Source: an uncultured Actinomycetes bacterium (GTDB lineage: Bacteria; Actinomycetota; Acidimicrobiia; IMCC26256; JACDBD01). Taken from it: a stretch of DNA of 64,000 nucleotides. The notes below the pieces were generated by a model. It was not told the origin of the DNA and made no database searches. It saw nothing but the letters and a program-made list of their open reading frames with translations. The stretch's first letter is position 1; each line of letters starts with the position of its first letter. The DNA lies in the NCBI GenBank assembly GCA_963737605.1, contig CAVTTE010000001.1:2631-66630 (forward strand), given 5' to 3'. The translations under genes and the position numbers were made by a program. Shown piece after piece: positions 3,629 to 9,818 of the stretch.

Positions 3629-4474
3629 GTGAAGAGGATCCTGCGTCTCATGATCGTCGCCGCCGTGGTGCTCGGCGTGCTCTGGCTTCTGCGTGAAGGC
3701 CGAGCCGCCAAGGCGCACGCGGCGGCCGGGCGCCGGGCCCGATATCTCGGGGGACGGTGGAAGGGGATCCGGTACCGCCTCGCGGGCCGCCGACCCGACC
3801 CATGGGCCAGACGACGACGTCCTGGCCGATCGCGTCCGGTCCGAGCTCGGTCCACTCGAGAAGCGGCTCGACGTGCCTCGCGTCCACGTGCAAGTCCACG
3901 ACCATCACGCGTCACTGCACGGCGACGTGCCGACATGGAAGGTGGCCGACCGTCTCGTCACGGCCGTGCTCCACGTCTCGGGGATCCACGGGGTCGAGTC
4001 GTATCTCCACGTCGGGCTGACGCCAGGCGACACCCGCCCGTCGGAGGGGCGCCTCCACGCCGCCAAGTCAAACGCGCTGCAGACCCTCGTGGGCGCCGCG
4101 ATCCGCGGCGGCGCGCCCGAGGACCGAGCCGTCGCATCGGTGCGCGCGGTGCTCAGTGCGTTCGTGGACCGGGTGCCGACCCCGGAACGTGATCACGTTC
4201 TGGCCCATCTTCCCGCCGACGTCCGCCCGCTGGCGACGCCGCCTCAGCCGGGCCGGCAAGCCTCCACCGCGTGCGAACTGTTCCCGAGCTCGTCGCCGGC
4301 GTGACGGCGCAGGCGGAGCCGGGCGGAAACGGCCTGGCTCGCGGGCACGAAGCCTTGATCACCGAGTCGGTGCTCGCAACGTTGCGTGGTCTCGTGCCCG
4401 AGGAGGCGGACGACATCGCCGCGGTGCTTCCCTCCGAGCTTCGTGCGTTTTGGAACGCGGCCGTGCCGGCATGA
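3629..4474 (+). CDS. Membrane-anchored BON-domain / DUF2267-repeat protein; two frame changes (~3800, ~4262)
   Basis: GTG 3629 is preceded by [39 protein letters not shown] is a TM helix. [41 protein letters not shown] is BON-like. [29 protein letters not shown] and [35 protein letters not shown] are DUF2267-like repeats. Pieces lie in ORFs 3257..4192, 3693..4304 and 4271..4474. Confidence 0.55.
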
Positions 4475-6302
4475 CCGATCGGACCGCGACCGAGGCTGGA
4501 TCGCGCATGCGGTACGAGACGATCCGGAAGCGGCGGGAAGACCTCCACGTCGCGCCGAACCTGGTCGACTACGAGTCGGCTCGTGCCGCGTTCACGTGGG
4601 ACGACGCCCGCCGGGAGCTGAGCGGTCTGCCGGGCGGTGGCCTGAACATCGCGTACGAGTGCGTCGACCGTCACGCCGCAGGCCCGCGCCGCGACCATCT
4701 CGCGCTCCGCTGGCTCGGACGCCACGGCGAACGTGCGTGACTTCTCACTACGCAGACCTCGAGAAGCTCACGAACCGGTTCGCCAACGTGCTCGCAGGCC
4801 TCGGCGTGGCGCGAGGCGACCGCGTCTTCGTGCTTGCCGGGCGCATCCCCGAGCTGTACGTCAGCGTGCTCGGAACGTTGAAGCACGGCGCGGTGGCGTG
4901 CTCCTTGTTCTCCGCGTTCGGTCCCGAGCCGATCCGCCAACGACTCGACATCGGCGGCGGCCGGGTGCTGGTGACCACCGAGGCGCTCTACCGGCGCAAG
5001 GTCGCCGAGTCATCCGAGATCGGCTGCCCGAGCTCGAGCACGTGCTGCTCATCGGAGCGAAGAAGCGAGCGACGAAATGCCCGTGCACCGAACTCACGAC
5101 TTCCACGACGCTCATGGACGCTGCATCGGAACGCTACGAGATCGCATCCACCGATCCCGAGGACATGGCGCTGCTCCACTTCACGAGCGGCACGACCGGG
5201 ACACGCCGAAAGGTGCGGTCCACGTACACGAGGCCGTGGTCGCGCACCACGCGACCGGGCAGGCTCGCGCTCGACCTCCATCCTGATGACGTGTTCTGGT
5301 GCACGGCCGATCCGGGCTGGGTGACGGGCACCTCCTACGGCATCGTGTCGCCGCTGACGCACGGCGTCACGAGCATCGTCGACGAGGGTGAGTTCGATGC
5401 CGAACGCTGGTACCGGATCCTCCGCGAGCAGCGGGTGAGCGTCTGGTACACGGCGCCGACAGCCGTCCGGATGATGATGAAGGTCGGCGCCGACGTCGCC
5501 CGCGAATACGAGCTGCCGCAGCTGCGGTTCATCGCCAGCGTCGGCGAGCCGCTGAACCCCGAGGCGGTGCAATGGGGGATCGACGCGTTCGGGCTCGCCG
5601 ATCCACGACAACTGGTGGCAGACCGAGACCGGCGGGATCATGATCGCCAACTTCGCCGCGATGGACATCCGACCGGGCTCGATGGGCCGGCCGCTGCCCG
5701 GCATCGACGCGGCCATCCTGCGGCGCGACGAGCACGGCAAGGTCGTCGTACGAGGCGGCGCGGCCGAGGTCATCGACGAGCCGCTTGGTCGAGGGCGAGC
5801 TCGCCCTTCGCCCGGGTGGCCGTCGATGTTCCGCGGCTACTTGCACGAGGAAGAGCGGTACCGGAAGTGCTTCGCCGGTGGCTGGTACCTGACCGGCGAC
5901 CTCGCGATGCAGCGACGCCGACGGCTACTTCTGGTTCGTCGGCCGCGGGACGACGTGATCAAGTCGGCGGGGCATCTCATCGGGCCGTTCGAGGTGGAGA
6001 GCGCGCTCATGGAGCACCCGGCCGTCGCCGAGGCCGGCGTGATCGGCAAGCCCGACCCCGTCATGGGCGAGATGGTGAAGGCATTCGTCTCGTTGCGCGC
6101 CGGCTACGAGGCGACCGAGGAGCTTCGCCTCGAGCTCGTCGGCTTCGGGCGCAAGCGGCTGGGCGCCGCGGTGGCGCCCCGGGAGTTGGACTTCACGGAT
6201 CGCCTCCCCAAGACACGGAGCGGCAAGATCATGCGCCGGCTGCTGCGGGCCCGCGAGCTGGGCCTGCCGGAAGGCGATCTCTCGACGCTGGAGAACGAGT
6301 GA
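4471..6302 (+). CDS. AMP-forming acetyl/short-chain acyl-CoA synthetase (AcsA type); heavily frame-disrupted (about 10 changes)
   Basis: ATG 4471 overlaps the upstream stop (ATGA). Motifs: [130 protein letters not shown]. Fragments lie in ORFs 4156..4740, 4386..5324, 4733..7120, 5077..5286 and 5640..6302. Confidence 0.8.
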
Positions 6303-8301: not shown

Positions 8302-9570
8302 GTTCCGGATGCCCTCGCTCGGCGCCGACATGGACGCCGGCACGATCATCGAATGGCTGGTGAAGCCGGGCGACGAGGTGCACCGCGGCGACATCGTGGC
8401 GGTGGTCGACACCGACAAGGCCGACGTCGACGTCGAGATCTTCGCCGACGGCGTCGTCGACGAGATCCTCGTGCCGCCCGGCGAGAAGGTCGACGTGGGC
8501 ACGCCACTGGCGAGCATCCTGGCGCCGGGCGAGACCGTGCGCGAAGCGAGCACCGGCGGGCCAAGAAGGCCCCAGCCGCCGCGAAGAAGGCGGCCAAGGC
8601 GGCGAGGGCAAAGGCGCCGAGCAAGCAGGCTCCCAAGCGCGCGCCGCGCCGCCGCCCGGCGGCGAAGACGACGCCCGAGACAAGGCCCCCGGCCGCCGAG
8701 CCCGCCCACTCGCCCGTGGTCCGTCGCCTGGCGCGGCACCTCGGCGTCGACCTCGCCGGCCTCGCGGGCACGGGGCCCGGTGGCGCGGTGACCAGAGCCG
8801 ACGTCGAGCGCGCGGCGACGGGAACCGTGGCGGCGCCGCAGGTCTCGTGGGCCGCCCCCGCCACGGCGGAGGCGACGGCCGACGTCGTCGAAGCGCCCGA
8901 CCGGTCGGACGCGATGCGCCGATCGATCGCGGCGCTGATGGCGCGCTCGAAGCGCGAGATCCCCCACTACTACCTCGGCACTCACGTGGACGCGACATCC
9001 GCGCTCGACTGGCTGGAGCACACCAACCTCGAGCGCCCGGTCCCCGAGCGGCTCCTGCCGGCGGCGCTGTTCTTGAAGGCGGTCGCGCTGGCGGCGCGCG
9101 AGGTTCCGCAACTCAATGGATTCTGGGTCGATGACACCTTCCGTCCCGGCGACGGCGTGCACCTCGGCGTCGCGATCTCCCTTCGCCAGGCCGGCGGTCT
9201 CATCGCGCCCGCGATCCACGATGCCGACCGCAAGGACCTCACGACCCTGATGAGCGAGCTGCGCGATCTCGTGACCCGCACCCGCGCCGGCCGGCTTCGC
9301 AGCTCCGAGATGTCGGACCCGACGTTGACGGTCACGAACCTGGGTGACCAGGGTGTGGAAACGGTGTACGGCGTGATCTATCCACCGCAGGTCGCGCTGG
9401 TCGGCGTGGGCAAGATCGTCGAGCGCCCATGGGCCGCCGGCAACATGGTCGGCGTGCGGCGCGTCGCGACGCTCACGCTCGCCGGCGACCACCGCGCGAG
9501 CGACGGTCATACGGGCGCGCAGCTGCTCGCCGCCGTCGATCGATTCCTTCAGGAGCCGGAGAAGCTGTGA
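8294..9570 (+). CDS. Dihydrolipoamide acyltransferase E2 (lipoyl domain - PSBD - catalytic domain); one frame change (~8555)
   Basis: ATG 8294 overlaps the E1beta end by 8 nt. The lipoyl site is [17 protein letters not shown], followed by an Ala/Lys/Pro linker. The PSBD is [33 protein letters not shown]. The catalytic motif is [17 protein letters not shown]. Pieces lie in ORFs 7856..8791 and 8353..9570. Confidence 0.85.
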
Positions 9571-9818
9571 ACGACACGGAAGTCCGATCCCAGGTCCTGC
9601 AGGCACTGGCGCAGGTTGCGCCCGAAGCCGACCTCGAGGGGCTCGATCCGAGCGGGGACTTCCGCGAGGAGCTCGACCTCGACTCCATGGACATCCTCAA
9701 CCTCGTCATCGGCCTCCACGAGGCGACGGGCGTCGACATCCCCGAGCGCGACTACCCACAACTCGTGACGCTGGACGCGTGCGTCTCCTACCTGTCGGAG
9801 CGACTCACGCCCGCCTGA
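9567..9818 (+). CDS. Free-standing acyl carrier protein (phosphopantetheine-binding), translationally coupled to E2
   Basis: GTG 9567 overlaps the E2 stop (GTGA). The product is 83 aa (distal part of ORF 9429..9818). ELDLDSMDILNLVIGLHE is a carrier-protein helix II with the DS(M) serine. Confidence 0.7.
   Translation: MNDTEVRSQVLQALAQVAPEADLEGLDPSGDFREELDLDSMDILNLVIGLHEATGVDIPERDYPQLVTLDACVSYLSERLTPA

Follow-up and report, generated by a model that had tools for sequence, protein, structure and literature searches.

A five-gene cassette in which acs and pyruvate dehydrogenase-type E1/E2 genes travel with their own acyl carrier protein

Of the systems described so far in which E1/E2-like enzymes load a C2 unit onto an acyl carrier protein (ACP), the closest to the one reported here are QncN/QncL/QncM of quinocarcin and SclQ1-4 of scleric acid. 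Both are glycolicacyl-ACP-forming, with the C2 unit proposed to end on the ACP; their E1 parts are homologous to QncN/QncL, the proposed substrates are ketose phosphates, the E1-beta-like part of QncL is fused to the E2, and the genes are located in non-ribosomal peptide synthetase (NRPS) clusters together with a phosphopantetheinyl transferase, the natural product being made (PMC6335953). Here we describe a five-gene cassette at positions 4471-9818 (+) of a 64,000-nucleotide stretch of DNA, to which we refer as the window, from an uncultured bacterium of the class Acidimicrobiia (assembly GCA_963737605.1, contig CAVTTE010000001.1, positions 2,631 to 66,630; the genome is designated G000 below). 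The genes stand in the fixed order acs-E1alpha-E1beta-E2-ACP. As in the Qnc and Scl systems, the genes for a thiamine diphosphate-dependent E1-like enzyme, a lipoyl/acyltransferase E2-like protein and a dedicated ACP lie together. Unlike in Qnc and Scl, the E1 of the cassette is a pyruvate dehydrogenase (PDH) equivalog, E1beta and E2 are separate genes, an AcsA-type acetate-CoA ligase is added and the flanks hold stress genes. As the Qnc and Scl systems are built from QncN/QncL-type parts in NRPS clusters, the cassette is not a member of their family.

The textbook PDH complex passes acetyl groups to coenzyme A (CoA). The cassette resembles the PDH complex with a heterotetrameric E1 (alphaproteobacterial and mitochondrial PdhA, PdhB, E2p and Lpd) in that its E1alpha and E1beta pass curated PDH models, and its E2 has a lipoyl domain, a peripheral-subunit-binding domain and a catalytic DHRxxDG motif, with the mammalian E2p core as its nearest structure. 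It differs in that an ACP gene is always coupled to the 3' end of E2 and an AcsA gene always leads; in that the E2 forms a long-branch clade that falls below all E2 cut-offs and ends uniformly in a short ...LQEPExL; and in that an E3 (lipoamide dehydrogenase) gene is found neither in the window nor among the 25 commonest flank families of other cassette loci (148 nearest flank open reading frames from about 40 loci). The explanation that we favour, and to which we give an even chance of being correct as a whole, is that 4471-9818 is one copy of a self-contained, horizontally spread five-gene unit that would convert pyruvate and acetate into acetyl-thioester with its own ACP, and that it lies in a stress/low-oxygen survival island.

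Composition and spread of the cassette

The five genes are chained by overlapping stop and start codons. In the ATGA at 4471 the ATG of acs overlaps the TGA of an upstream gene with BON and DUF2267 domains (3654-4474, +; Pfam BON 34.6 bits, DUF2267 31.1 bits), itself frameshifted. The acsA gene (4471-6302, +) encodes an AcsA-type, AMP-forming acetate-CoA ligase, its window pieces matching Pfam AMP-binding and AMP-binding_C; its stop is overlapped by the ATG (6302) of the PDH E1 alpha gene pdhA (6302-7300, +; window piece E1_dh, 244.7 bits) within the TGATG at 6300-6304. The ATGA at 7297 joins E1alpha to E1beta, encoded by pdhB (7297-8301, +; window piece with Transket_pyr and Transketolase_C). 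The E1beta stop is at 8299-8301 and the ATG of the E2 acyltransferase gene (8294-9570, +; window pieces with Biotin_lipoyl, E3_binding and 2-oxoacid_dh) at 8294, an overlap of eight bases. Finally, in the GTGA at 9567 the GTG start of the dedicated 83-amino-acid ACP (9567-9818, +; PP-binding, 33.2 bits) overlaps the E2 stop. All five junctions given in an earlier sequence-only reading of this DNA are exact on re-reading of the sequence, and its 83-residue ACP with a DSM serine and its observation that the window holds no E3 are likewise borne out, with no lipoamide-dehydrogenase match inside the 64 kb; what that reading overlooked is that the four large genes are not open frames as deposited.

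The link between the ACP and the E1/E2 module is strongly supported by comparison of loci. The ACP subfamily has 683 matches in the protein collection, and a pattern scan found its carriers in at least 565 species genomes. The cassette spans more than ten phyla: ACP carriers are found in Binatia, Myxococcota, Acidimicrobiia, Actinomycetes, Thermoleophilia, Chloroflexota, Nitrospira, Rokubacteria, Acidobacteriota, Alpha-, Beta- and Gammaproteobacteria and Pirellulales. Nearly every ACP-ascertained locus with enough upstream DNA shows the full gene order, the exceptions being L048, which has the ACP alone, L102, where acs immediately precedes the ACP, and the degenerate L077. As ascertainment by the ACP introduces a bias, we performed a second search with the E2 catalytic domain. 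An ACP homologue was located at the 3' end of E2 in 74 out of 74 loci found in this way, and acs, E1alpha and E1beta lay upstream in order in 60 out of 60. The sequence-only reading, which had treated the ACP as part of the E1/E2 module and named its co-occurrence with the operon in related genomes as a check, is upheld on both counts: the ACP is an integral, conserved component. The E2-ascertained loci include the complete genome of Candidatus Nitrospira defluvii as well as isolates of Nocardioides, Streptomyces, Cryobacterium and Cellulomonas.

The cassette is also present in 33 plasmid or chromid records, including pDK1 of Rhodococcus sp. DK17 and pMSMB0266 of Burkholderia savannae, and intact copies occur in cultured Rhodococcus sp. 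DK17, Burkholderia savannae, Cellulomonas soli and Vogesella amnigena. The five genes have the locus tags PST05_RS41510-41530 on Rhodococcus sp. DK17 pDK1 and WS78_RS34095-34115 in B. savannae. Metagenome contigs of Binataceae and Thermodesulfobacteriota carry the same five genes with 4-base overlaps between unrelated flanks. As a part of the favoured explanation, the cassette is taken to be a self-contained unit spread by horizontal transfer. Closer to the window, among 40 relatives (G012 being counted as a negative) the specific ACP, at 56% identity or more, is found only in G001, G024, G027 and G030; the other matching relatives have solely an AcpP-type housekeeping ACP, 30-37% identical, and five give no match. 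The complete set acs-E1alpha-E1beta-E2-ACP is intact in G024, G027 and G030. In G027 a lipoprotein-like gene with Germane and Gmad2 domains (L015:5257-6273) is inserted between acs and E1alpha, the sole break of the cassette order among the relatives. At L102:177-4442, in a metagenome-assembled genome (MAG) of Acidimicrobiales, ppsA and acs are followed by a cassette-type ACP, and the E1/E2 genes are absent; this is either a natural variant made up of acs and ACP only or a deletion.

We assigned the components to families by scoring NCBIfam curated models on the intact orthologues of G030 (acs, L016:5043-6821; E1alpha, L016:6821-7837). The acs product is an AcsA-type acetate-CoA ligase (NF003313, 901.6 bits against a cut-off of 729) that retains the C-terminal lysine motif. 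E1alpha passes TIGR03182 (PDH_E1_alph_y, 461.5 bits against 393.85) and reaches 46.9 bits on the transketolase model, as compared to the 488 required; E1beta passes NF006667 (410.6 bits against 321). The ACP stays below all AcpP model cut-offs, with a best score of 35.3 bits against 71, and is 32% identical to a separate AcpP-like gene on contig C6 of G000. Its phosphopantetheine serine lies in an invariant DLDSMD, and 16 columns are invariant among 20 sequences from several phyla; cassette ACPs are 55-85% identical across phyla and carry a net charge of -8 to -14, that of the window ACP being -14. G000 additionally has two other E2-bearing systems, one of them OdhA-like, so the cassette is an extra set, and the genome encodes two phosphopantetheinyl transferases. 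One match to the latter family lies at G000:C1:73244-73369, about 6.6 kb past the end of the window. Four fragmented Lpd-like loci lie on C6, C7, C8 and C9, each under the TIGR01350 cut-off owing to frameshifts.

The E2 is the divergent member of the set. While its parts are those of an ordinary E2, namely a lipoyl domain with a TDKA lysine, one peripheral-subunit-binding domain and a catalytic domain with DHRASDG, it scores below the cut-off on 12 out of 12 NCBIfam models, the best being TIGR01349 with 250 bits against 445. Assignment to the acetoin dehydrogenase component AcoC was considered and rejected (NF011457, 72 bits against 307, from the lipoyl domain only). Among solved structures, the mammalian E2p core comes closest to the catalytic domain (2.4e-31), with the catalytic DHRxxDG aligned. 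The catalytic domain of the window E2 has 51-76% identity to those of other cassette loci, as compared to 26-36% for housekeeping E2s of the same lineages. We also computed a quick IQ-TREE tree with 14 housekeeping E2s from related genomes as the only reference sequences, in which 63 cassette E2s formed one clade with an SH-aLRT of 100 on a branch of 3.19 changes per site. The window E2 ends in ...LQEPEKL, and ...LQEPExL is shared by 57 of 61 cassette E2s; after the conserved Pro this end is two residues shorter than that of human E2p, the alignment stopping at 642 of 647. There are 32 positions that are conserved in the cassette E2s and different in housekeeping E2s, including R111 for D, S151 for D and G186 and G197 for D, with further cassette-specific basic residues at R34, R66, R149 and H219. 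The sequence-only reading had suspected that this was no ordinary PDH or branched-chain 2-oxoacid dehydrogenase and had proposed an E2 phylogeny; the separate clade and the failure on every NCBIfam E2 model agree with that suspicion.

We found no published description of the cassette in full-text literature searches; a paper on Mycobacterium abscessus hypoxia and one on Bradyrhizobium PhaR mention solely housekeeping PDH operons. Genes annotated by PGAP carry the labels acsA, pdhA, beta subunit, dihydrolipoamide acetyltransferase family protein and acyl carrier protein. The cassette is new in its obligatory AcsA and ACP, being PDH-type by its E1 and a divergent subfamily by its E2.

The acceptor of the acetyl group

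The most likely mechanism, as yet unproven, is acetyl transfer to the ACP. Because the proteins belong to their families at equivalog level and the catalytic motifs are intact, E1 alpha/beta is predicted to decarboxylate pyruvate and reductively acetylate the lipoyl-lysine of E2. The E2 catalytic domain would then hand the acetyl group to a phosphopantetheine thiol, which we take to be that of holo-ACP, instead of or beside CoA. AcsA would feed acetate into the same acetyl-thioester pool, or drain that pool, and the dihydrolipoyl arm would be re-oxidised by an E3 encoded elsewhere in the genome.

We modelled three copies of the E2 catalytic domain together with the ACP, each with its own alignment. 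This E2 trimer plus ACP scored 0.52, as compared to 0.01 for the best of three controls; contacts agreed in at least 81% across runs, with a partner pLDDT of at least 81. In the calibration of this fold test, from which our use of own alignments and of a 3+1 chain set-up differs, 58 of 80 solved complexes passed the mark, as did 2 of 110 mismatched pairs; scores at or below 0.60 account for 7 of the 80 solved complexes and for both of the mismatches that passed. The model thus lends weak support to contact between E2 and ACP: it is a small push in that direction and no proof.

Several considerations weigh against acetyl transfer to the ACP and its low-oxygen setting. We know of no experiment or paper in which a PDH-type E2 is shown to pass acetyl groups to an ACP. 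AcsA passes a CoA-ligase equivalog cut-off, and CoA may therefore be the real thiol for both AcsA and E2. In canonical E2 cores the CoA site opens toward the inside of the core, and the ACP may be out of reach of such an inward site unless this E2 assembles differently. The support from the modelled complex is, as said, weak. There are no robust E2-ACP fusions: eight longer proteins were found, all of them singletons. These eight long ACP forms were discarded as Rosetta-stone evidence, as they look like artefacts of indels or deletions: on inspection, they are read-throughs between the E2 and ACP frames or internal deletions. Lastly, the low-oxygen context comes from the gene neighbourhood only, and a search of this window for the box of the mycobacterial dormancy regulator DosR (GGGACN4GTCCC, at most one mismatch) was null, with 7 matches against 7.7 expected and none near the cassette.

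The alternative that survives best, though we consider it doubtful, is an ordinary CoA-dependent PDH with an acetyl-CoA synthetase, present as a second, stress-induced copy, in which the ACP is an accessory never acetylated by E2; the ACP could then be an octanoyl or lipoyl donor for E2 lipoylation, or a structural or regulatory subunit. It is in keeping with this alternative that E1alpha, E1beta and AcsA all exceed the curated cut-offs of canonical CoA-linked families, that the E2 retains the catalytic His/Asp and the peripheral-subunit-binding domain, and that E3-like genes and the two phosphopantetheinyl transferases are available elsewhere in G000. However, the presence of the ACP at the E2 3' end in every one of the E2-ascertained loci, together with its conservation across phyla, argues for a direct catalytic partnership; LipA, LipB and LplA are absent from the 25 commonest flank families; basic substitutions specific to the cassette mark the E2, which is a long-branch subfamily; and the modelled complex, with its score well above the controls, leans weakly toward contact with the ACP.

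A more radical proposal, which we regard as rather improbable, is that the ACP replaces CoA for both E2 and AcsA. Pyruvate would be converted to acetyl-S-ACP, from which AcsA, working backwards with AMP and PPi, would form acetate and ATP; PpsA, which can likewise make ATP from phosphoenolpyruvate, would operate alongside. Dormant, oxygen-starved cells would in this way be kept energised by CoA-independent substrate-level phosphorylation, and the dihydrolipoyl arm would perhaps be re-oxidised by acceptors other than E3.

Genomic neighbourhood and the polyketide genes

Upstream of the cassette the window holds a phosphoribosyltransferase (PRTase)-hydrolase gene and the BON/DUF2267 gene. After the cassette come two CBS genes, Hsp20, an M50 protease, an acyl-CoA synthetase, PpsA, Usp and PNPOx, then a Pat-like GNAT-acyl-CoA synthetase, a KAS III-like gene, a formate/nitrite transporter, a pyruvate:ferredoxin oxidoreductase (PFOR), WS/DGAT and a P-type ATPase, and finally a PfaA-like polyketide synthase (PKS). 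These neighbours recall the mycobacterial DosR dormancy regulon and the Burkholderia cenocepacia lxa locus, with which the neighbour families Usp, Hsp20, CBS, PRTase, M50, PpsA, WS/DGAT and P-type ATPase are shared; a GAF sensor kinase and a response regulator also lie near the cassette on Rhodococcus DK17 pDK1, where it stands between ppsA/pfkB/GNAT on one side and Usp with the sensor kinase and regulator on the other. Unlike in the DosR regulon, DosR-box enrichment is absent from this window. We also considered the lxa locus itself as a carrier of the cassette and rejected it: the cassette is absent from the lxa paper, where the listing of the locus includes acetate kinase and phosphate acetyltransferase, and PDH, Acs and ACP are not in the list (PMC3721108). 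The window has the makeup of a stress island, with the cassette among stress-survival genes; in the favoured explanation this island serves survival under stress and low oxygen.

No flank family is constant. In the flank census Cpn60, Usp and CBS were each found 5 times, DksA 4 times, and AlaDH, Hsp20, PRTase and RlaP 3 times each; within 8 kb of the cassette among 80 loci, we counted Usp at 9, Hsp20 at 9 and Pat-like GNAT at 5. Within the genus, synteny is limited to matches of the PRTase-hydrolase gene and a glycosyltransferase (72-77%), and the genomes are too diverged to define insertion borders.

A few neighbours merit separate mention. The cassette ligase resembles the Bacillus-type AcsA with Pat/AcuA-type control in passing NF003313, in keeping the C-terminal lysine motif and in having a Pat-like gene at 24162-26800 (-) in the same window; the encoded protein has an N-terminal GNAT domain followed by CoA-binding, succinyl-CoA-ligase-like and ATP-grasp domains. 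Pat-like GNAT-acyl-CoA synthetases of this kind acetylate AMP-forming acyl-CoA synthetases. Unlike its Bacillus counterpart, the cassette AcsA is translationally coupled to PDH E1/E2 and ACP, and Pat-like genes are near the cassette at only the 5 of 80 loci counted above. A PpsA-type pyruvate, water dikinase is encoded at 15813-18095 (+); homologues are near the cassette in 7 of 80 loci and adjoin it in G024, G027 and Rhodococcus DK17 pDK1. At 30858-35468 (+) the formate/nitrite transporter is followed by PFOR, so that the island has a second means, sensitive to oxygen, of turning pyruvate into acetyl-CoA. At the start of the window, RtcB-, archease- and NadA-like genes (3-2237, +; assigned by eye) apparently run into the gene chain of the cassette, and the RtcB and RlaP families recur in the flanks of other cassette loci. 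Finally, contigs of a rhizosphere metatranscriptome run (X4) are 90-95% like acs, E1alpha, E1beta and E2 (window 4328-9497); this is a hint that a relative's cassette is expressed and not evidence of it, as contigs in an RNA library do not show transcription.

The sequence-only reading had placed the cassette in a natural-product setting, as a Qnc-like module whose acyl-ACP product could serve the KAS III-like enzymes (28.8-30.8 kb) or the PfaA-like synthase (56 kb onward) of the window as starter or extender. A KAS III-like gene with ACP_syn_III and a PfaA-like PKS are indeed found in the same window, and there is precedent in QncN/QncL/QncM and SclQ1-4 for the loading of a dedicated ACP by E1/E2-like enzymes (PMC6335953). 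However, in none of 80 loci does the cassette have a KAS III homologue within 8 kb, and the PfaA ketosynthase gave 2 weak matches; the top 25 flank families contain neither a ketosynthase nor an NRPS; the two genes are 19 and 45 kb away from the cassette, with unrelated genes on both strands in between; and E1alpha passes the PDH equivalog model and is not transketolase-like, with stress genes as the flanks. We therefore reject the polyketide link as very unlikely, together with the natural-product framing: the KAS III-like and PfaA-like genes of this window are unconnected with the cassette. As to these genes themselves, stops or frameshifts break up the KAS III-like gene (29041-30857, -; ACP_syn_III domains) as well, a second KAS III-like piece (29041-29583) has no Pfam match, and the PfaA-like synthase (54597-64000, +) contains at least three near-identical tandem ACP repeats (61083-62237).

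Frame disruptions and the meaning of the cassette

As deposited, none of the four large cassette genes is a single open frame, with about 14 frameshifts in 5.3 kb. The window has a G+C content of 70%, and plain lists of open reading frames are therefore crowded with spurious frames; the codon-position G+C plot and stop-to-stop frames show the proteins expected at 4471-9818 (+) to be spread across several frames. As frameshifts break most genes, a GC3-based open reading frame filter overlooked them, and plain tblastn read through compensating frameshifts and so concealed them. Instead, we used the frame plot, a G+C-phase Viterbi model that counts unexplained frame switches, and a frameshift-aware alignment of the intact G030 orthologues to the window. 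The last places 9 frame changes in acs (4732, 5007, 5060, 5107, 5201, 5257, 5597, 5913 and 5944), 2 in E1alpha (7103 and 7200), 2 compensating ones in E1beta (8068 and 8133) and 1-2 in the E2 linker (8534/8655). After frame correction this alignment shows no in-frame stops in the cassette genes, and identity to the orthologues is 76-81%; for acs, 449 of 593 positions are identical to L016:5043-6821.

The frameshifts are indel errors of long-read assembly and not gene decay, since they are found genome-wide and the stray bases are missing from independent short-read contigs at the positions in question. Frame switches occur at 0.72 per kb in the window (46 in total) and at 0.83 per kb across G000, as compared to 0-0.06 per kb in loci from isolates and in most short-read loci (with values of 0.24 and 0.54 in two of the latter) and about 1.0 per kb in another long-read MAG. 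Contigs of runs X1-X4 (three DNA runs and one RNA-library run), aligned to the stretch at 90-99% identity, have one base fewer at 4732/4747, 5205/5208, 5257, 5597 and 5911/5913 and one more at 5947, which are the sites predicted from the protein alignment. G000 is 64% complete in spite of having just 16 contigs, which is explained by frame switches breaking most long genes; other few-contig relatives are 60-75% complete, whereas many-contig short-read relatives are mostly at 84-99% (range 59-99%). The Lpd-like genes elsewhere in G000 are likewise split into 3-5 pieces. The cassette genes are thus probably intact in the organism, and open frames of G000, rich as it is in indel errors, are untrustworthy without frame correction.

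That the cassette in G000 is a decaying pseudogene array with real frameshifts, as their number, the 1087 bp missing across the acs 3' end and E1alpha 5' end in the sister genome G001 and the presence of the cassette in only 2 of 19 genomes of the genus might suggest, is hardly credible given the absence of in-frame stops, the corrected identity to distant orthologues, a density of frame switches that does not exceed that of the remaining window or genome, the lack of the indels in short-read contigs of close relatives and the low completeness of all few-contig relatives. In G001 itself (L017, G001:C8; ACP 96% identical), the missing segment corresponds to window 5649-6735, and its absence joins acs and E1alpha into a hybrid frame; either a genuine deletion or a misassembly could account for it.

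A version of PDH that always travels with its own ACP and acetate ligase would suggest that acetyl units can be handled in a way not recognised so far. The question of the ACP is directly testable, as intact copies are available in cultured strains and in the complete genome of Candidatus Nitrospira defluvii. Given that the cassette is found in hundreds of species from more than ten phyla, on plasmids and in stress-survival islands, its role may be in oxygen-limited or dormant cells.

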